From assembly GCA_029098125.1 (NCBI GenBank), contig JAQXNS010000003.1, forward strand, positions 2,845 through 66,844: DNA of 64,000 nt, read 5' to 3'. Each line of letters starts with the position of its first letter. Position 1 is the first letter of the stretch. Made by a program: the position numbers and the translations under genes. This document shows positions 2,674 through 12,833 of the stretch, piece by piece. The notes under the pieces were generated by a model. It did not search any database. It saw only the letters and a list, made by a program, of their open reading frames with translations, and had not been told where the DNA came from. This stretch comes from a bacterium (GTDB taxonomy: Bacteria; Bacillota_I; Bacilli_A; RFN20; CAG-826).

Positions 2674-2718
2674 ATGCAAGTATATTTATAAATTTATTTA
2701 TAAATCGTGAGGTATTAT

Positions 2719-5559
2719 ATGAAAAGATTTGCAGGATATTTATCACTTTGCGTGTCAGTCGTGACTGCAGTTTTAGTTGGAGTCGTTCCAACAATTTTAG
2801 GCACGAATGGCAGCGGCGATTATTCTTCTTCTAACAAATATGTTTTCAAAGTGAGCAACAAGCAAGTTAGCTCTAGTGAGTTTTCTGATGGAACAAACAA
2901 TGGTTTAACTTATGATGAAAACGGTAATACACCAGCTGAAGATATTTCAAATGAATTCAAAGTTAGATTAGGACAAGCTGGAATTACTGGATACCAACTT
3001 GCAACAATTAATGACGATATTATTGAATTAACTTTTAAAGACAGTCAAAACATTTATACAGATGTTATTGATTTTTTAACTTATTCAAATTCATTAATGG
3101 CAAAAACTTACGATGGAGAATATTCATTTGGTTTTAGCGCATCTGAAATTTATAACGGTGCAAAACCTTCTAATTCCACATTTTTAAAACCTGGAACAGC
3201 AAGAGTTGAGTATAGAGACAACTATCCTTATGTTATTATGGATTTAAATTCTCCAGAAGAGTTTAATAATGCAATTAAATCACTTACTCAAACAAGTAGC
3301 GATTCAGATAGCAATAGAAATGCAGGCGAATTATTAGGAAATACAATTAGAAAAGCTGGTGAATCAACATCCGAAGAAGAACAAACACCAAAAGTTGACC
3401 CAAAAAAGGCAATTTTTGTTTTAAACAACTGGTTAAATGACTTTACACTTGAAGGTTTATTAAATAACAGCAACGGAAATATCACAAATGATAATTTTCA
3501 TAATTACGTTTTAACTTATTTTGATGCTGCAGAACCATCAAAAATCTATTGGGATTATGATTCTTCTCTTTCAAGTGAAGACCAAAATAAAAAGATTTAT
3601 GAATCAATTTATTTTTCATTTTATAATCTCGGAGCAGCAAATGGTGAGGGTTGTTTAGATGTTACAACATCTTATTCTCTTTATAATGTTCAAGAAACTG
3701 ACTCAAAATTAGCTTATAGAAAAGCAAATATTTTAATGAATAAATTAAATTCAAGTGATTACAAATATCAAATTACTTTAATTAATGAATCAAAGGTTAA
3801 TGAAGGAACAAACACAGTTTCTCCATTTAAAGAATATTTAAAACGTGCTGGTTCAGTTAATTTATCAACTTTATTAATTTCAACAATTATTGCTGCAATT
3901 ATTGTATTTTTATTCTTAATTTTACATTATGGAGCAGCAGGAATTTTAAGTTTTGCATTATCTTTAGGCAACGTAATCGGTTCACTTGCTTTATTTAATT
4001 TCTTAGGAAATGAATTTAATATCGGTACAATTATCGGCTTATTTGGTGTTGCATTAATAACATTAATTACAACAATTCAATTTATGCATAAAGCAAAAGA
4101 AGAAGTTTACGCTGGCAAAGCTCTCAAAAAGGCTTATCAAGAAAGTGGTAAGAAAAACACATGGTTATTACTTGATGTTTCAGTTATTACTGTAATTTTA
4201 GGTTTAACATGCTATTTAATCCAAAACGCAAACTTAATTGCATTTGGAGGAATCACAATTATTGGTGCAATTATCAATGTTTTATTGAGCGGAATTGTCT
4301 TTAGAGGCTTCTCATGGTTCCTTTATAACTCTGATTTCGCTTCAAAACATCCAAGAGTACTTCAAATCGAACCAAAATTAATCCCTGATTTAACAAAAGA
4401 AGAAAAAGCAAAATATTTTGATGAATTTAACCGTGGTGATTCAAAACGTACATTTAAAGTTTACGGAATCGCTGGTCTTGTTTTACTTGTTGCTTCAATT
4501 GTTGGAATTACAACTTTCCAAGTTGTTAATGGAAATATTTACAATTCAACAGAAACATCAAAATACAATTCAGTTACTGTCCAATACAATTTAGTTAACG
4601 CTAACGATGAATTTATTGTTGATAATAAGATTTTAAAAATCGAAGAAGCATTTGATGATATTTATAAGGATCAAGATTTAAGCACTAAATATTTTAAAGC
4701 TGACTCAATTTCTGTAGATTCTTATTACAATGAATATTTAGCTGGTGAAACTAACCCAATTAAATACAGAGAATATTATTTTGTTGTTGATTTAGGATCA
4801 AATTACGATTTTGATACTTCTGTTTACTACTCAAATGGTGGTTCAAAAGTTGCTGATAAACTTGGAAATGTCATCAAAACATCAATTCAATCAAAATTAG
4901 ATACAAACTATCTTGTTTCAATCAATGTAACTAAGAATGTTAGTGATGATTTCAATAATAAAGATGTTGCAATTGCAGTAGCAATTACAGTCGCAATTCT
5001 TTTTGCTTACTTTATCTTAAGATTTGGCCCTTCAAAAGCATTAACTGCTTTATTAGTTGGCGCTTCATTATTAACAATTTCAATTGGTATCTTCTCACTT
5101 ATTAGAGGTAATTTCACAAGTGAATTAACTCTTGGATTACTTTTAATTACTTTATTAACTTATATTTCATTTACACTTTACTTTATTGATGAACAAGCTC
5201 TCGTTAGAGAAAACAAAAAAGAACTTTCCGATCTTGATAAGAGACAAGAAAAATTCGAATATTCAGCAAATATTACATATAAATTAGTGTTTAATATCGC
5301 ATTATTTGCAATATTTATCGTTATTAGTTTCTTCTTCTCAACATCTTTGCAAGGTTACACACTTTTATATTTCATTGTTTCTTTGATTTTATCCTCAATA
5401 TTAATTAAAGGAACAGCATTACCAATCGAAATGTTCTTCTCTAGATCTTTTAAGAAGATATTTAGCAAAAAACCAAATATCGTTATTAACAAAAAAAGTA
5501 AACAAAAATCTGATGATGATGGCCCACAAGAAGCTATCTTTATTGGAATTAATGACTAA
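2719..5559 (+). CDS. secDF: Protein-export membrane protein SecDF (fused)
   Basis: Two SecD/SecF-type multi-TM bundles (around ...LISTIIAAIIVFLFLILHYGAAG... and ...AIAVAITVAILFAYFILRFGPSKAL...), each preceded by a large extracytoplasmic domain. The ORF-track start at 2707 is GTG. The ATG at 2719 lies 6 nt after GAGG. Confidence 0.8.
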   Translation: MKRFAGYLSLCVSVVTAVLVGVVPTILGTNGSGDYSSSNKYVFKVSNKQVSSSEFSDGTNNGLTYDENGNTPAEDISNEFKVRLGQAGITGYQLATINDDIIELTFKDSQNIYTDVIDFLTYSNSLMAKTYDGEYSFGFSASEIYNGAKPSNSTFLKPGTARVEYRDNYPYVIMDLNSPEEFNNAIKSLTQTSSDSDSNRNAGELLGNTIRKAGESTSEEEQTPKVDPKKAIFVLNNWLNDFTLEGLLNNSNGNITNDNFHNYVLTYFDAAEPSKIYWDYDSSLSSEDQNKKIYESIYFSFYNLGAANGEGCLDVTTSYSLYNVQETDSKLAYRKANILMNKLNSSDYKYQITLINESKVNEGTNTVSPFKEYLKRAGSVNLSTLLISTIIAAIIVFLFLILHYGAAGILSFALSLGNVIGSLALFNFLGNEFNIGTIIGLFGVALITLITTIQFMHKAKEEVYAGKALKKAYQESGKKNTWLLLDVSVITVILGLTCYLIQNANLIAFGGITIIGAIINVLLSGIVFRGFSWFLYNSDFASKHPRVLQIEPKLIPDLTKEEKAKYFDEFNRGDSKRTFKVYGIAGLVLLVASIVGITTFQVVNGNIYNSTETSKYNSVTVQYNLVNANDEFIVDNKILKIEEAFDDIYKDQDLSTKYFKADSISVDSYYNEYLAGETNPIKYREYYFVVDLGSNYDFDTSVYYSNGGSKVADKLGNVIKTSIQSKLDTNYLVSINVTKNVSDDFNNKDVAIAVAITVAILFAYFILRFGPSKALTALLVGASLLTISIGIFSLIRGNFTSELTLGLLLITLLTYISFTLYFIDEQALVRENKKELSDLDKRQEKFEYSANITYKLVFNIALFAIFIVISFFFSTSLQGYTLLYFIVSLILSSILIKGTALPIEMFFSRSFKKIFSKKPNIVINKKSKQKSDDDGPQEAIFIGIND

Positions 5560-7154: not shown

Positions 7155-9422
7155 ATGGAAGAAATTATTAGAGAAGGCGCTTTTACTGTTGATGAAACGA
7201 AAAAAGAGAATAATGCAAGTGGAATTCAGCCAAATGGTGGATATACAATGCATACTTTTGAAGATGTAAAAGAAATTTATTTTGCATATATTCATGATGA
7301 AAATGATAGAGATTTGATTCAAAGAGCATATGATCTTGTAAAAGTTCAACATGATGGAATTTTTAGAAAAAGTGGTGAACCTTATTTACAACATTTAATC
7401 GAAGTCGCTTATATTTGTGCTAAACTTCAAGGCGGACCAACAACAATTGCTGCGGCATTTTTGCATGATGTTGTTGAAGATACAGATACAACAATTCAAG
7501 AAATTAATGAAAAATTTGGTGAAGATTGTGCAAAAATTGTCGATGCATTAACCAAAATTCAAAGAATGAAACTATCTCATAGAACTGAAGAAGAATTTGC
7601 AGCTGAAGATCATCGTAAAATCTTTTTAGGTATGGCAAAAGATGTTCGTGTCATTATTATTAAACTCGCTGATAGACTTCACAATATGAGAACAATTGAT
7701 GCTTTAAAACCTGAACGTCAACACGCACTTGCTCGTGAAACATTGGAAGTTTTTGCTCCAATTGCTCATCGTTTAGGTATTTATAGGGTTGAAAGCGAAT
7801 TAGAAGATTTATCATTAAGAATTGAAAAACCAACTGAGTTTAATGAGATCCAAAAATTATTAAATGAAAAAGTAAAATATAGACAAAAAGCTTTAAATAA
7901 TTTAAAGAAAAAAATTGCTGATATTTTGATTGAAGCAAATATTAAATTTACAATAGAATCAAGAATTAAATCGATATTTTCAATTTATAAAAAGATGTAC
8001 ATTAAAGGTCATTCTTTTGATGAAATTTATGATTTTTTAGCTTTAAGAGTTATCACAGAAACTGAGATAAATTGTTATGAAATTTTAGGTTTAGTACACG
8101 CTCACTTTAAGCCTATTCCTGGTAGATTTAAAGATTATATTGCTATGCCAAAACCAAATATGTATCAATCTTTACATACAACAGTCATTGCTGGCGATGG
8201 TAATATTTTTGAAGTTCAAATTAGAACTAAAGAAATGGATGAAATTGCTGAAACTGGAGTTGCTGCACACTGGAGATATAAAGAAAATGCACATTATTCT
8301 CCAAAACAAGAACAACAAGAAATCGAAGAAAAACTACATTGGTTTAGAGATTTTTTATCAATTAATAGTGATTCAAAAGATAAAAGTGCTACTGAATACA
8401 TGGAATCTCTTTCGAAAGATATTTTTGAAGCTAATGTTTATGTTTTCACACCAAAAGGTAAGGTTATTGACTTGCCAAACGGCTCAACACCTCTTGATTT
8501 AGCATATAAAATCCATACAAAAGTTGGTGATAGTGCAATTGGTGCAACTGTTAATGGCAATTTAGTTCCATTAAATACAATTTTAAAAACTGGTGATATT
8601 GTTGAAATTAAAACTTCAAAGACATCACCAGGACCAAATGAGAGCTGGCTTTCCATTGTAAAAACTACAAGCGCCAAAAACCACATTAAAAAATTCATTC
8701 AAAAGAAGAATAGTGACTTATTAAAGGATGAAAGAACAAAACAAGGACGTCAAGCTTGTGCAGATTTCTTTAAAGATCATGGAATTGATGAAAATGAAAT
8801 GATGTCTTTATTAAATACTGAACGTGTTTTAAAGAATTTCCAAGTTTCATCAGTTGAAGAATTATTTGTTAGAATTGTTGCGCATAACCCTAACCCAGCA
8901 CAAATTTGCGACTTTTTAGGAATAAAAAGAGTTTATAAAAAAGATACAAAATTGTTCAAAAAAGAAAATTTTGACGATGATAAGTGTCCAGTCACAATTG
9001 ATAATCAAACCGGATTTAAAATTACTTTAGGTAATTGCTGTACTCCAATTCCTGGCGATTCAATTGTTGGATATGTTACAAAAGGTAATGGAATTACAGT
9101 TCATAGAATCACATGTCCAAATGTTCAAAACCAACAAAGACTAATTGAAGTTCATTGGAAAGAAAATTTAGGAATTAAGTCTTATCCAGTCGATATCATG
9201 ATTGAATGTCAAGATAGAAACAATTTAATTGCTGATATTTTGAATATTTTTAACTCAAATAAGATTAAATGTACTGAAATCTCCGGTCGTTTGCATCCAG
9301 AAAGTGCAACAACAAGCATTTCCGCTCAAATTTATGTATCTGATGCAAATGTTTTAAATCATATTTTTGATATTTTAAGAAGTACAAAAGGTATTTATGA
9401 GGTTAGAAGAGTTATCCATTAA
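7155..9422 (+). CDS. relA: Bifunctional (p)ppGpp synthetase/hydrolase Rel/SpoT
   Basis: HD hydrolase domain (HLIEV...FLHDVVEDT), RelA/SpoT synthetase motif (FKDYIAMPKPNMYQSLHTTV...EVQIRT), and TGS and C-terminal ACT-like regions. The true start may be an internal Met (MHTFEDV). Confidence 0.92.
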   Translation: MEEIIREGAFTVDETKKENNASGIQPNGGYTMHTFEDVKEIYFAYIHDENDRDLIQRAYDLVKVQHDGIFRKSGEPYLQHLIEVAYICAKLQGGPTTIAAAFLHDVVEDTDTTIQEINEKFGEDCAKIVDALTKIQRMKLSHRTEEEFAAEDHRKIFLGMAKDVRVIIIKLADRLHNMRTIDALKPERQHALARETLEVFAPIAHRLGIYRVESELEDLSLRIEKPTEFNEIQKLLNEKVKYRQKALNNLKKKIADILIEANIKFTIESRIKSIFSIYKKMYIKGHSFDEIYDFLALRVITETEINCYEILGLVHAHFKPIPGRFKDYIAMPKPNMYQSLHTTVIAGDGNIFEVQIRTKEMDEIAETGVAAHWRYKENAHYSPKQEQQEIEEKLHWFRDFLSINSDSKDKSATEYMESLSKDIFEANVYVFTPKGKVIDLPNGSTPLDLAYKIHTKVGDSAIGATVNGNLVPLNTILKTGDIVEIKTSKTSPGPNESWLSIVKTTSAKNHIKKFIQKKNSDLLKDERTKQGRQACADFFKDHGIDENEMMSLLNTERVLKNFQVSSVEELFVRIVAHNPNPAQICDFLGIKRVYKKDTKLFKKENFDDDKCPVTIDNQTGFKITLGNCCTPIPGDSIVGYVTKGNGITVHRITCPNVQNQQRLIEVHWKENLGIKSYPVDIMIECQDRNNLIADILNIFNSNKIKCTEISGRLHPESATTSISAQIYVSDANVLNHIFDILRSTKGIYEVRRVIH

Positions 9423-9483
9423 CTCTATCAAAACTTAACAAAGTAGTAATAATTATTTATAATTATTAAAATGAGGTTTATAT

Positions 9484-11049
9484 ATGTATAGCTTAGTTAA
9501 AGGTACACACGATGTAATATTAGATGAAGCAGATAGATATACTGCTGTTGAAAATGTTTTGACTGCAACTGCAAAACTTTACGGTTATAGAGAATTTAGA
9601 ACTCCAATTCTTGAACATACAGAATTATTTTTAAGAAGTGTTGGCAATAGTAGTGATATTGTTCGTAAAGAAATGTACACTTTTATGGATAAATCAGATA
9701 GAAGTATCACTTTAAGACCTGAAATTACTGCAGGAACAATAAGATCAATTGTTAATAATAAACTTCTTGCTAATCAAGATTTTCCATTAAAAGCATATTA
9801 TATTGGTCCTAATTTTAGATATGAAAGACCACAACAAGGAAGATATAGACAATTTAATCAATTTGGTGTTGAATGCGTTGGTGTAGTTGGACCTGAAAGA
9901 GATGCAGAAGTCATTATTTTAGGATACCATCAACTAGATGAACTCGGTTTTGAAAATGTTACTTTAAAAATTAATACATTAGGTGATGAAAAAAGCCGTG
10001 AAGACTACAAAGAAGCATTAAAACAATATTTTAGCGAACATCTTGATGAAATGTGTTCCGATTGTAAAGAAAGGTTTAAGTTAAATATTCTTAGAATTCT
10101 CGATTGTAAAGTCGAAAATGATAGAAAAATTATCGAAAATGCACCAAAAATCATCGATTATTTAACTGATGAAGCAAAACAATATTTTGAAACTATTTGT
10201 AAAATATTAGATGAATCAGAAATCCCTTATGTAATCGATCATGATCTTGTTAGAGGCTTAGACTATTATAGTGGGCCTGTTTTCGAATTCCACTATACAT
10301 CTAAACTTGGAAAAAATTATGGCGCAATTGGTGCAGGTGGACACTATGGAAAATTAGTAAAAGAAGTTGGTGGACCTGATGTTGAAGGTTGCGGATTTGC
10401 AATGGGAATTGAAAGACTTGTCAGTGTTATGACAGATGATGGAATATTTGATGATTTCAAAGCAAAAATGGATGTTTATTTAATGCCATTATCTAAAGAT
10501 TATTATCATGCAGCCTTATGCCTTGCAAACGATCTAAGATCTGATGGTTATGTTGTTGAAGTTTGCTTAGAAAATAAGGGAATTTCTCAAATGTTTAAAA
10601 AGGCTGAAAGAAGAAATGCACGTTACGCTGGAATTATTGGTGAAACTGAAATTCTTACTAATACTATTATTTTGAAAAATTTAGAAACAAAAGAACAAAT
10701 TACAGTCCCACTTAAGAGTATAATTTATACTTTAGAACATTTGCTTAAACCAGAAGAAGAAAGTGAATGTTGTTGCGGAGACGATCATGAACATGAATGC
10801 TGCTGCGGGGATGATGATTGCTGTTGTGAACACAATCACGAAGATGATGATTGCTGCTGTGGACATGATCATGAACATGATGATTGCTGTTGCGGGCATA
10901 ATCATGAAGATGATGACTGCTGTTGTGAGCACGATGGTCTAGATTGTGATTGTTGCTCTAATCATAGCCATGATGAACATCATCAAGTATGGTCACATGA
11001 TGATAAAGATGAGGAATGTTGTTGTTGTGGCCATAAAAAGGACAAATAA
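9484..11049 (+). CDS. hisS: Histidine--tRNA ligase with a C-terminal Cys/His/Asp-rich repeat extension
   Basis: Class II core with motif 2 FRYERPQQGRYRQFNQFGVE, HisA LVRGLDYY and GFAMGIERL, followed by an anticodon-binding domain. Residues 429-521 form a CCC(G/E)HxHExDD repeat tail. SD GAGG lies upstream. Confidence 0.9.
   Translation: MYSLVKGTHDVILDEADRYTAVENVLTATAKLYGYREFRTPILEHTELFLRSVGNSSDIVRKEMYTFMDKSDRSITLRPEITAGTIRSIVNNKLLANQDFPLKAYYIGPNFRYERPQQGRYRQFNQFGVECVGVVGPERDAEVIILGYHQLDELGFENVTLKINTLGDEKSREDYKEALKQYFSEHLDEMCSDCKERFKLNILRILDCKVENDRKIIENAPKIIDYLTDEAKQYFETICKILDESEIPYVIDHDLVRGLDYYSGPVFEFHYTSKLGKNYGAIGAGGHYGKLVKEVGGPDVEGCGFAMGIERLVSVMTDDGIFDDFKAKMDVYLMPLSKDYYHAALCLANDLRSDGYVVEVCLENKGISQMFKKAERRNARYAGIIGETEILTNTIILKNLETKEQITVPLKSIIYTLEHLLKPEEESECCCGDDHEHECCCGDDDCCCEHNHEDDDCCCGHDHEHDDCCCGHNHEDDDCCCEHDGLDCDCCSNHSHDEHHQVWSHDDKDEECCCCGHKKDK
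10819..10950 (+). repeat. Four in-frame 33-nt (11-aa) coding repeats inside the hisS tail
   Basis: Units are CCCEHNHEDDD, CCCGHDHEHDD, CCCGHNHEDDD and CCCEHDGLDCD. Shorter related units lie on both sides (10768-11046). Cys codons alternate between TGT and TGC from unit to unit. Confidence 0.9.
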
Positions 11050-11069: not shown

Positions 11070-12833
11070 ATGGCAATGGAAGGCGTAGAAGAAGTATTTT
11101 TAAGAACTGATTATTGTGGAAATCTTAGATTAAAAGATGAAGGTAGAGTTGTAACTGTTATAGGTTGGGTCTCAAAAAGACGTAATCTAGGTTCTTTATT
11201 ATTCATTGATTTAAGAGATAGAGAAGGATATGTTCAAGTTTGTGTAAAAACTGATGAAATTAATGTTCCTGAAATTAGAAATGAATATATTCTTGAAGTT
11301 ACTGGCGTTGTAACTAAAAAAGATGTACCAAATAAAAATTTAGCAACTGGAGAAATTGAAGTTGTTGCAACAAATATCAAAGTTATTAATACTGCAAATC
11401 AACCACCAATTTCTACTCAAGAAGAAACTGATGCCAATGAAGATATTAGACTTAAATATAGATATTTAGATTTAAGAAGACTTTGTATGCAAAAAAGGCT
11501 CAGAATAAGAGCAAAAATTGTTCGTTCAATTCATGAATATCTCGATTCTAAGGATTTTATTGAAATTGAAACACCATATTTATCACCATCTACACCTGAA
11601 GGAGCTAGAGACTATTTAGTTCCAAGTAGAGTTCATAAAGGCTGTTTTTATGCTTTACCTCAATCACCTCAACTATTTAAACAAATGTTGATGGTTTCTG
11701 GTTTTGAAAGATATTATCAAATTGCTCGTTGCTTTAGAGATGAAGATTTAAGAGCTGATAGACAACCAGATTTTACTCAAGTTGATGTTGAAACAAGTTT
11801 TTTAAATCAAGATCAAATCTTAACACTTGGTGAAGAACTATGTGCAAAAGTTTTTAAAGATGTTTTAAATATTGATGTTAAACTTCCATTAAGAAGAATG
11901 GACTATCTCGAAGCTGTAAATAAATATGGAAGCGATAAACCAGATACAAGATATACATTATATTTAACTGATGTAAAAGATATCTTAAAAGATTCTGATT
12001 TTAAGGTTTATCAAGATAATAAATATATAAAAGCTATAAAAGTTGATGGTTTTGCAAAAGAATTGTCACGTAAAAAACAAGATCAAATCAATTTAACAGC
12101 ACCTAAATTCAATATGAAACAATTTGGTTTCTTAAAATATGAAAACGGAGCACTTGAAGGATCTGTTACTAAATTTTTATCTGAAGAAATCAAATCAAAA
12201 CTTGTCGAAAGACTAGAATTAAAAGAAAATGACGCTGTAATTATTGCAACAAGCAATATTTTAAGAGATGTGAACTTTGGACTTGGTGCAGTTAGAGTAA
12301 ATCTTGCTAAAGAATTAGGCTTAGTTAAACCAAATACTTATGATTTATTATGGGTTGTCCATTTCCCATTATTTGAAAAAAGCGAGGAAACAGGTGAAAT
12401 TACTCCATGCCATCACCCATTTACAAGACCTTGCGATGAAGACTTAGATAAATTATTTACTGAACCATACAATGTCTACAGTTATGCTTACGACATTGTA
12501 ATTAATGGTTATGAAGCAGGTGGTGGATCTTTAAGAATTTATGATCAAGATGTTCAAGAAAAGATTTTTAAAGTTCTTGGCTTCACTCAAGAAGATATAC
12601 AAAATAAATTTGGATTCTTTGTTGAATCCTTAAAATATGGAACACCTCCACATGGTGGTTTTGCTCTCGGACTTGATAGATTATCAATGATTCTAAGTGG
12701 AACAGATAACATTCGTGATGTCATTGCTTTCCCTAAAAATCTTGCTGCTACAGATCCTGTAACAAACGCACCATATGAAGTTGATCCAGAACAACTTGAT
12801 AATTTAGGAATTTGTATTAAAAAAGAGGATTAG
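11070..12833 (+). CDS. aspS: Aspartate--tRNA ligase
   Basis: 587 aa with an N-terminal OB anticodon-binding domain. Class II motifs FRDEDLRADRQPDFTQ and GGFALGLDRL. Follows hisS as in Firmicutes. Confidence 0.93.
   Translation: MAMEGVEEVFLRTDYCGNLRLKDEGRVVTVIGWVSKRRNLGSLLFIDLRDREGYVQVCVKTDEINVPEIRNEYILEVTGVVTKKDVPNKNLATGEIEVVATNIKVINTANQPPISTQEETDANEDIRLKYRYLDLRRLCMQKRLRIRAKIVRSIHEYLDSKDFIEIETPYLSPSTPEGARDYLVPSRVHKGCFYALPQSPQLFKQMLMVSGFERYYQIARCFRDEDLRADRQPDFTQVDVETSFLNQDQILTLGEELCAKVFKDVLNIDVKLPLRRMDYLEAVNKYGSDKPDTRYTLYLTDVKDILKDSDFKVYQDNKYIKAIKVDGFAKELSRKKQDQINLTAPKFNMKQFGFLKYENGALEGSVTKFLSEEIKSKLVERLELKENDAVIIATSNILRDVNFGLGAVRVNLAKELGLVKPNTYDLLWVVHFPLFEKSEETGEITPCHHPFTRPCDEDLDKLFTEPYNVYSYAYDIVINGYEAGGGSLRIYDQDVQEKIFKVLGFTQEDIQNKFGFFVESLKYGTPPHGGFALGLDRLSMILSGTDNIRDVIAFPKNLAATDPVTNAPYEVDPEQLDNLGICIKKED

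Follow-up and report, generated by a model that had tools for sequence, protein, structure and literature searches.

In the 64-kb stretch of contig JAQXNS010000003.1 analysed here (64,000 nucleotides, referred to below as the window), the gene hisS of an uncultured gut bacterium encodes a complete housekeeping histidyl-tRNA synthetase (HisRS) with an in-frame C-terminal appendage, a tail of 93 residues that is exceptionally rich in cysteine and histidine. Comparison of strains and relatives indicates that this tail is inherited and under protein-level constraint while its repeat number is still changing, and that it is, among the sequences compared, the extreme of a continuum which runs from EHHHE to 100 residues across an order-level group of gut and rumen anaerobes. 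By analogy with known metal-binding tails, it would be a high-capacity, disordered, multi-site metal-binding segment of the Zn/Ni type fused to the C-terminus of a housekeeping HisRS, a reading to which we assign a probability of about 0.6.

The synthetase and its tail

The 521-aa product of hisS is exactly GenBank MDD5932682.1 ('MAG: histidine--tRNA ligase [bacterium]', from a metagenome-assembled genome, MAG) and scores 463 bits against the NCBIfam hisS equivalog TIGR00442 (cut-off 286.75), while the model of the paralogue HisZ, TIGR00443, gives 169 bits, under its own cut-off of 271.65, so that the protein is not HisZ. Its nearest solved structures are those of S. aureus (1QE0, 3e-106) and E. 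coli (1KMM). Alignment with the latter places E. coli Glu83, Arg113, Glu131, Arg259, Tyr264 and Glu270 at E80, R112, E130, R257, Y262 and E268, and the motif 3 arginine at R311; these seven residues are invariant in a 45-sequence HisRS alignment. PMC8558854 gives nine charged residues as constant over the 12 HisRS structures compared there, and eight of the nine are kept in the window's enzyme, Arg287 being the sole change. An AlphaFold2 prediction built on a 45-sequence alignment gives a predicted local distance difference test score (pLDDT) mostly above 90 in the catalytic core and above 90 in the anticodon-binding domain to about aa 420. An earlier reading of this DNA, made from its letters alone (the sequence-only reading), had claimed a complete HisRS with an in-frame extension, and this is borne out: Pfam recognizes both domains, the frame runs on after ...YTLEHLLKPEEESE exactly as quoted there, and the stop codon lies at 11047-11049.

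The tail contains 25 Cys, 22 Asp, 16 His, 10 Glu and 6 Gly among its 93 residues, a recount that returns the Cys and His figures of the sequence-only reading. The start at 10753 that had been given with them takes in the acidic linker, and the Cys-rich part proper spans 10768-11046. Asp and Glu make up 34% of it (about 35% of the tails of homologues), and its aromatic residues amount to one Trp, with neither Phe nor Tyr. Against a background of 1.4% Cys and 1.5% His in the other open reading frames (ORFs) of the window (19,172 residues), a stretch of 93 residues would contain 25 or more Cys with a probability of about 9e-25 and 16 or more His with one of about 8e-13. Over all frames of the window the tail alone is Cys/His-rich, save for two matches that are not genes, one on its own reverse strand and one in a non-coding frame. 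Tandem Repeats Finder detects 3.7 copies of a 33-nt period in it, with 83% matches and zero indels, the units reading CCC-(G/E)-H-x-H-E-x-D-D by codon. The spelling of the Cys triplet changes from one unit to another (TGT TGT TGC, TGC TGC TGC, TGC TGT TGT, TGC TGC TGT, TGC TGT TGC and so on), which agrees with the earlier observation that synonymous Cys codons vary between the 33-nt units. The tail has 42% G+C in a window of 28.6% G+C, and its Cys and His codon usage equals that of the rest of the window (Fisher p 0.5 and 1.0), which fits a long residence in the host genome.

A Pfam search found no family in the tail, even at E <= 1, and the tail is predicted to be intrinsically disordered, residues 425-521 of the AlphaFold2 model having pLDDT values of 27-38 and zero secondary structure. 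When the tail region was folded as RNA, z came to -2, a value explained by the self-complementarity of GAUGAU and AUCAUC and not taken as signal. Two ORFs of 59-66 aa that overlap the tail (10732-10932 on the reverse strand and 10763-10942 on the forward strand) were set aside as by-products of the codon repeat, being without other support.

Inheritance and strain variation

It might be supposed that such a tail is an assembly artefact, a frameshift or a chimera, since repeats may in principle mislead assemblers; nothing else was found that speaks for this, and its probability is negligible. The exact 521-aa protein was recovered not only in GenBank but in several independent ENA and Logan assemblies, its 90%-identity cluster holds 124 members from ENA, Logan and NCBI assemblies, a second contig (L081) with 98.4-98.8% nucleotide identity across relA-hisS-aspS bears the same tail, and homologous tails are present in most relatives. 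The sequence-only reading had itself named an artefact, or absence of the tail from all relatives, as what would overturn its claim, and neither holds. Between the second contig and the window, five codons of the tail are changed, with four synonymous differences (three of these at Cys) and one non-synonymous, and the hisS core shows 12 synonymous and 2 non-synonymous differences. Strains within the species have HisRS of 510, 521, 531 or 532 aa (variants found among P0127, P0128, P0129 and P0130), the whole 11-residue unit CCCxHxHExDD being gained or lost, always in frame. That the repeat is old and not the product of recent slippage, as had been argued, is therefore correct for the trait, which is old, but not for the number of 33-nt units, which is polymorphic among strains today. 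A 503-aa version (P0130), which terminates directly after the tail's Trp503, was also observed; it could be a nonsense allele in which the next codon, TCA, has become TAA or TGA.

In homologue pairs whose tails align without gaps, the tail diverges about 3.5 times as fast per site as the core (4.4% versus 1.25% amino-acid differences), its replacements being chiefly D/E, D/N and E/K exchanges. Retention in alignable tail pairs is 94% for Cys, 97% for His and 61% for Asp, in a small sample of pairs that are not phylogenetically independent. Cys and His are kept while other residues are free, which is how a disordered region behaves when selection maintains the density of ligands but leaves the exact order of residues open, and these comparisons show a Cys/His composition that is evidently kept against the AT bias of the genome. 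The tail of a homologue with a core 75% identical (P0002) shares with that of the window a Q-x-W-S-H element and a terminal CCC(C)G-K-K, and the window's Q-V-W-S-H may be a small specific site inside an otherwise compositional tail.

Tails among related synthetases

The survey of relatives that had been proposed with the sequence-only reading was run on the 120 closest HisRS in a collection of 5.8 billion proteins (55-99% identical, from MAGs labelled Bacilli, Mollicutes and Erysipelotrichales). Past the last core helix their tails measure 4-100 residues, with a median of 18, and most have at least two His (99/120); at least two Cys are found in 62 and a CCC triplet in 42. Pooled, these tails consist of 22.5% His, 21.5% Glu, 17.5% Cys and 13.8% Asp, compared with 1.8% Cys and 1.2% His in the cores. 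Many of them finish in CCCGHHHE(K), the shortest consist of an acidic stretch followed by HHH(H)E, and separate lineages (for example P0099 and P0031) show unit expansions of their own.

Remoter tailed HisRS, 41-45% identical, include those of Allobaculum stercoricanis DSM 13633 (L009), an Izemoplasmatales MAG (L020) and three further loci (L008, L010 and L011); these genome loci come from a collection of species-representative genomes, and counts among them refer to the matches listed, which are samples and not censuses. In a search seeded with the Allobaculum sequence, Erysipelotrichaceae HisRS commonly end in acidic His-rich tails, mostly EHHHHE; that of Faecalicoccus pleomorphus ends in EEEHEHHHQEEEE, and tails with Cys also occur in the family (CTCGQENCTCGHDH, CDDPNCSCHHHD). 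The Cys/His composition is upheld over HisRS just 40-65% identical in their cores. Across 15 related loci with 125 ORF-like stretches, a Cys/His-rich segment was found in HisRS alone, the one other match being a spurious reverse-strand frame.

Other proteins with the tail motif

A search of the 5.8 billion proteins with the tail alone gave 362 word-sharing candidates and none at E <= 0.001, composition-bias correction removing such matches. An exact degenerate DNA pattern for CCCGHHHE was therefore run on a metagenome collection, and it returned at least 120 loci, dominated by one abundant human-gut taxon. The carriers of the motif include at least 14 COG0523/CobW GTPases, in which repeats of it lie in the linker ahead of CobW_C, at least 10 P1B-type ATPases, with DDDCCCGHDHEQEHHHHH repeats before their HMA domains, at least two FKBPs of SlyD type that bear it in their C-terminal tails, and at least one further tailed HisRS (L084, 510 aa). 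The metal-binding-like composition attributed to the tail in the sequence-only reading thus has counterparts in three such families, and, going by these shared motifs, the vocabulary of the HisRS tails is that of proteins handling Zn, Ni, Co or Cd, although it is also present on assorted enzymes of gut Firmicutes. A local HisRS hidden Markov model (HMM) labelled four further motif loci 'HisRS' (L093, L165, L191 and L192; E 1e-6 to 1e-7), spuriously, the model having included tail columns. L191 is a SlyD-type FKBP and L192 a COG0523 protein by Pfam, L093 and L165 are placed by their CobW_C-like sequence context, and the only true HisRS among the HMM-labelled motif loci is L084.

It has been demonstrated that the His/Cys-rich C-terminus of SlyD binds Ni and Zn (PMC3292732), that the di-Cys motifs and His stretch of the HMA4 tail give nanomolar Zn affinity (PMC6255694) and that the His-rich tail of GroEL1 binds Cu (PMC10170517), and the COG0523 family has been tied to Zn homeostasis (PMC2770081). 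According to PMC6821194, prokaryotic His-rich low-complexity regions associate with Ni, Co and metal-ion Gene Ontology terms, and Cys is heavily under-represented in prokaryotic low-complexity regions; because Cys is disfavoured there, a tail with 27% Cys is unusual.

The most frequent motif carrier, with 59 of the 120 matches listed, is a 3-hydroxyisobutyrate-dehydrogenase-like oxidoreductase that belongs essentially to the one abundant human-gut taxon. This 3-hydroxyisobutyrate/6-phosphogluconate-dehydrogenase-like NAD-binding enzyme has a 45-residue Cys/His/Gly C-terminal tail (...GHGHDDGHECCCGHHHEE) and was seen at L085:62-1297 (+), L172:409-1461 (-) and at least 57 similar human-gut metagenome loci. 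A PduL-type phosphate propanoyltransferase (L118) has the C-terminus CCCEGDDECCCGHHHE. A 154-aa protein that matches no Pfam family, seen at L086:1436-1897 (+) and at least four similar loci, starts with MLLEEEKCGCEHDHEEDECCCGHHHEHHEDECCCGHHHDH and continues into an acidic domain, and it may be a small protein devoted to metal binding.

Proposed function and alternative explanations

As a metal-binding segment, the tail would resemble both metallothioneins and the SlyD tail, its ligands being thiolates and imidazoles. With 25 Cys and 16 His flanked by Asp and Glu, each subunit would bind several divalent ions of the soft or borderline class, some 8-14 if the ligands are counted by analogy with metallothioneins. 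The metal would most likely be Zn(II), which is favoured because the motif keeps company with COG0523 proteins and Zn/Cd-type ATPases, while Ni(II) and Co(II), and also Cu(I), are possible. The abundant and essential HisRS dimer would in this way double as a cytosolic metal buffer or reservoir, and HisRS might be protected or tuned by the metal occupancy of its tail. Two links to this particular enzyme can be envisaged. Histidine, the substrate of HisRS, is a major ligand of labile Zn and Ni. Alternatively, the binding of tRNA could be modulated by an acidic tail that lies beside the anticodon-binding domain and responds to metal or pH.

Several points weigh against the metal-binding reading. 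Metal binding rests throughout on composition and analogy, the length of the tail varies from 4 to 100 residues and its sequence diverges some 3.5 times faster than the core, and some close relatives end in only IKEE, IDED or ESDHE, the first two counting as tailless, which means that it is dispensable there. The motif is also found on enzymes with no obvious role in metal trafficking, above all the oxidoreductase just described, so that the motif alone is no proof of a dedicated function, and the gene families in the surroundings of hisS in the window include zero metal-homeostasis genes. Furthermore, one ion cannot be bound by every Cys of a triplet, which puts the coordination chemistry beyond deduction from sequence, and the choice of HisRS as host is left unaccounted for. 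A passive sponge does not explain specificity for HisRS over a deep clade, and it is chiefly on this account that regulatory readings are still entertained. In one of them, which we consider quite unlikely, the tail would serve HisRS throughout this lineage of gut Bacilli and Erysipelotrichales as a regulatory module: its metal occupancy would control the charging of tRNA-His, directly or by stripping metal from metal-histidine complexes, and would convey Zn/Ni status to translation and, by way of uncharged tRNA-His and RelA, to the stringent response.

A related possibility is that the tail is an acidic autoinhibitory segment which competes with tRNA, cation binding or protonation of its His and Cys shifting that competition and so coupling tRNA-His charging and RelA to metal or pH. 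The acidic tails of SSB and HMGB1 compete with nucleic acid in a comparable manner, the tail follows immediately on the helix that closes the anticodon-binding domain, about a third of it is acidic here (34%) and in homologues (about 35%), its minimal conserved form is an acidic stretch with HHH, and relA lies upstream in all related loci that reach that far. The order relA-hisS-aspS is, however, the usual arrangement in Bacillus-type genomes, so that this adjacency is of little weight, and AlphaFold2 gives zero docking of the tail; this mechanism, which we hold to be very doubtful, moreover overlaps with metal binding and does not exclude it.

On the other hand, the tail might have no function at all, slippage or unequal recombination having expanded a short C-terminal His/acidic run into a low-complexity tract that is tolerated on a solvent-exposed C-terminus. 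Copy number that is polymorphic within the species, the wide range of lengths down to close relatives without a tail, divergence faster than that of the core and unit expansions that arose independently by lineage, as in P0099 and P0031, are all in keeping with this. Slippage at 28.6% G+C nevertheless predicts runs rich in Asn, Lys or Ile and not a tract of 42% G+C with 27% Cys, a residue reported to be heavily under-represented in prokaryotic low-complexity regions (PMC6821194). Against drift of this kind there is also the fact that the Cys/His composition persists across HisRS 40-65% identical in the core and that Cys and His are the best-retained residues of the tail; strain differences are mostly synonymous, every indel is in frame, and the trait is confined to HisRS in each neighbourhood looked at. 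A functionless expansion is for these reasons unlikely. Even less can be said for a thiol redox or sulfide sensor or scavenger, in which the 25 Cys of a strict gut anaerobe would be oxidized or persulfidated by oxygen, reactive oxygen species or H2S and would alter HisRS activity or solubility, or simply absorb oxidants. The very high Cys density and the gut and rumen metagenomes from which the sequences stem would suit it, but many relatives are His-only (at least two His in 99/120 as opposed to at least two Cys in 62/120, and mostly EHHHHE in Erysipelotrichaceae). The ancestral or common feature is accordingly imidazole plus carboxylate, which speaks for metal chemistry and not for thiol redox, and the same motifs stand in metal transporters and chaperones, all of which renders the redox explanation highly improbable.

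Finally, selection might act on the codons, if ribosomes stalled on the His and Cys codons clustered at the 3' end of hisS whenever His- or Cys-tRNA is scarce, as in the leader peptide of the his operon, and the expression of hisS or aspS was thereby altered after loss of a T-box. There is indeed neither a T-box nor any other Rfam element upstream, where the spacer is 61 nt, aspS begins 20 nt past the hisS stop without a terminator, and the minimal tail is a run of three or four His codons. Yet a stall within hisS would cut HisRS output just when it is needed, which is the wrong sign of feedback, and the tail shows no rare-codon bias, its codon usage being that of the rest of the window. It is the residues that are under selection, Cys and His being retained as their codons vary, the Asp/Glu/Gly spacing and the terminal CCCG motif have no part in such a model, and the RNA structure signal is weak (z = -2), so that this explanation appears extremely improbable. 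Two further candidates were dismissed by reasoning, namely a precursor of a ribosomally synthesized and post-translationally modified peptide (RiPP) or of SCIFF type, there being no maturase neighbours, and Fe-S cluster binding by the tail, as consecutive Cys triplets are unlike Fe-S motifs.

The HisB motif variant

In an aside of low confidence, the sequence-only reading had remarked that the segment expected to contain the HisB motif GGRYD reads GAGGHYGKL. The 1KMM alignment, which sets AGGHYGKL of the window against AGGRYDGL of E. coli, agrees, and it identifies the replaced residue as Arg287 and not the catalytic Arg259 (the R of LVRGLDYY), which is intact as R257. According to PMC8558854, Arg287 lies about 13 A from the phosphate and makes small computed contributions. 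The residue is not among the curated criteria for a bacterial HisRS, and its loss is no bar to membership. Whereas canonical HisRS have GGRYD, the window's clade has GGHY(G/N/S): GGHY is present in 120/120 of the closest homologues, in L001-L007 only among the 80 genome loci listed, and in 5 of 150 representatives obtained at 50% clustering, among which other AT-rich lineages have Q, C, E or F at this place. Cys/His-rich tails occur in three of the five GGHY representatives versus one of 137 (Fisher p 8e-5, kinship being ignored), but the canonical GGRYD enzymes of Erysipelotrichaceae frequently carry tails too, so that the HisB variant and the tail are not mechanistically tied. For the same reason, and because Arg259 is intact and the residue concerned is Arg287, the idea that a His replaces the catalytic Arg and that metal is recruited to the active site was dropped.

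Genomic context

The features of the locus are collected in Table 1. The gene order recJ-relA-hisS-aspS-tkt is kept in L002, L005 and L007, and relA-hisS-aspS-tkt in L001, L003, L004, L006, L008 and L084; this shared order indicates that the tailed enzymes are orthologues of a single housekeeping hisS and not paralogues. The surroundings in the window are purely housekeeping, with ruvAB, a SecDF-like gene, recJ, relA/spoT, hisS, aspS, tkt, nusB, xseA and dinB, together with xerD, topoisomerase subunits, plsY, efp and ispG, and aspS itself has no Cys/His tail. The 61-nt spacer between relA and hisS occupies 9423-9483, and no terminator-like site was found between hisS and aspS. An Rfam scan of the whole window gave zero families at the gathering score, neither a T-box nor even a tRNA. 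The hisS of B. subtilis has a T-box leader, and the window's gene, which lacks one, differs in this from the T-box-regulated hisS-aspS operon of the Bacillus type. TGA serves as stop in 7/53 ORFs of the window, so that the standard bacterial code applies. Elsewhere in the window, a 950-aa ORF at 2707-5559 (+) matches SecDF models weakly and far under their cut-offs, the best being the mycoplasma-type SecDF_plasm (126 bits against a cut-off of 500, over aa 337-950), and has a long unmatched N-terminal part.

Table 1. Positions of hisS, its domains and tail elements, and adjacent features in the window
Feature	Position	Strand	Basis
hisS, histidine--tRNA ligase, 521 aa with tail	9484..11049	+	ORF listing, NCBIfam, solved relatives
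Class II catalytic core, aa 7-312	9502..10419	+	Pfam PF13393 (tRNA-synt_His), E 3.5e-43
HisB motif variant G-G-H-Y-G, aa 285-289; E. coli Arg287 -> His, Asp289 -> Gly	10336..10350	+	residue-by-residue 1KMM alignment
Anticodon-binding domain, aa 330-417	10471..10734	+	Pfam PF03129 (HGTP_anticodon), E 3.6e-14
Acidic linker KPEEESE, aa 422-428	10747..10767	+	translation; acidic stretch at the same place in homologues
Cys/His/Asp/Glu-rich tail, aa 429-521, predicted disordered	10768..11046	+	composition, AlphaFold2
33-nt tandem repeat array, CCC-x-H-x-H-E-x-D-D units	10810..10932	+	Tandem Repeats Finder, codon layout
Non-repetitive Q-V-W-S-H element within the tail, aa 501-505	10984..10998	+	aligns with Q-E-W-S-H in the tail of P0002
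relA/spoT family gene, upstream neighbour	7155..9422	+	TIGR00691, 710 bits
aspS, downstream neighbour, 20 nt past the hisS stop	11070..12833	+	NF001750, 773 bits
Promoter-like site upstream of hisS, TTAACA-17-TATAAT, 11/12 matches	9435..9463	+	

Novelty and significance

Bacterial aminoacyl-tRNA synthetases are usually seen as bare catalytic machines, appended domains with extra functions being mainly eukaryotic. No published description of a Cys/His-tailed HisRS was found in a full-text literature search of incomplete coverage, which included term look-ups in a 2024 review on bacterial metallostasis. The appendage is not peculiar to this genome. Bacterial HisRS and His/Cys-rich metal-binding tails are each known, and it is their combination, its conservation across a clade and the extreme Cys content that appear to be undescribed.

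An essential synthetase with a compositionally conserved Cys/His tail is here found across abundant, mostly uncultured gut bacteria with reduced genomes. If the tail binds metal like its counterparts in SlyD, COG0523 proteins and ATPases, HisRS would constitute a sizeable cytosolic Zn/Ni store under metal restriction by the host, metal status and histidine charging could be coupled, and the tail would by the same analogy provide a natural high-density metal-binding tag. Were the regulatory reading true, it would be the first metal-sensing appendage of an aminoacyl-tRNA synthetase in bacteria. Even an inert tail would still be an unusual Cys-rich low-complexity region, of a class reported to be strongly disfavoured in prokaryotes. 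The case is directly testable in cultured relatives with shorter tails, such as Allobaculum stercoricanis DSM 13633 and Faecalicoccus pleomorphus. Its interest is limited by a mechanism taken from analogy, by the dispensability of the tail in some relatives and by similar tails on many unrelated enzymes.

Comparison with known systems

With canonical bacterial HisRS (E. coli 1KMM, S. aureus 1QE0) the window's enzyme has in common the class II core, the HisA motif RGLDYY and the residues Arg259, Glu83, Arg113, Glu131 and Glu270, and the anticodon-binding domain and the relA-hisS-aspS locus are likewise present. Whereas canonical enzymes terminate about five residues past the last helix, at 420-424 aa, this one runs to 521 aa.

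The nearest parallels to the additional part are found in metal-binding proteins. Metallothioneins (e.g., bacterial SmtA/BmtA) resemble it in a Cys content of about 27% arranged as CC, CCC and CxC, in the use of His as co-ligand and in being almost without aromatic or hydrophobic residues; the HisRS tail differs from them in that it is not a small stand-alone protein, has no metallothionein Pfam match, is strongly acidic and is predicted to be disordered. COG0523/CobW GTPases contain repeated HEEGHCCCGHHHEEHEHHHH-type units of the same motif vocabulary as the HisRS tails (L083, L101, L192), but their low-complexity stretch lies between the GTPase domain and CobW_C of a dedicated metal chaperone, and there is no homology outside it. 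In P1B ATPases, with extensions at bacterial N-termini and at the C-terminus of plant HMA4, the DDDCCCGHDHEQEHHHHH repeats stand ahead of the HMA domains of gut-metagenome enzymes (L091), although these are membrane transporters in which such extensions have a sensory or regulatory role in metal export.

The SlyD tail of E. coli and H. pylori is likewise an unstructured C-terminus on a cytosolic housekeeping protein, rich in His, Cys, Asp, Glu and Gly and with cysteines next to one another, and a gut-metagenome SlyD-type FKBP (L191) bears the very CCCGHHHE used by HisRS homologues; SlyD itself, however, is a prolyl isomerase of the FKBP type and a chaperone linked with the maturation of hydrogenase, and the HisRS tail is richer in Cys (27%) and built of triple-Cys units. 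Chaperonins offer another case, H. pylori HspA (GroES) having a His/Cys-rich metal-binding C-terminal extension. This protein and mycobacterial GroEL1 share with HisRS an essential and abundant host with a lineage-specific His(/Cys)-rich extension at its C-terminus, but their tails, which bind Ni or Cu, are short (about 10-27 residues), dominated by His and of experimentally shown function, while the HisRS tail is known here from sequence. In its build the tail is therefore SlyD/HspA-like on a host, HisRS, that lies outside the FKBP and chaperonin families, and by this analogy it may work like these.

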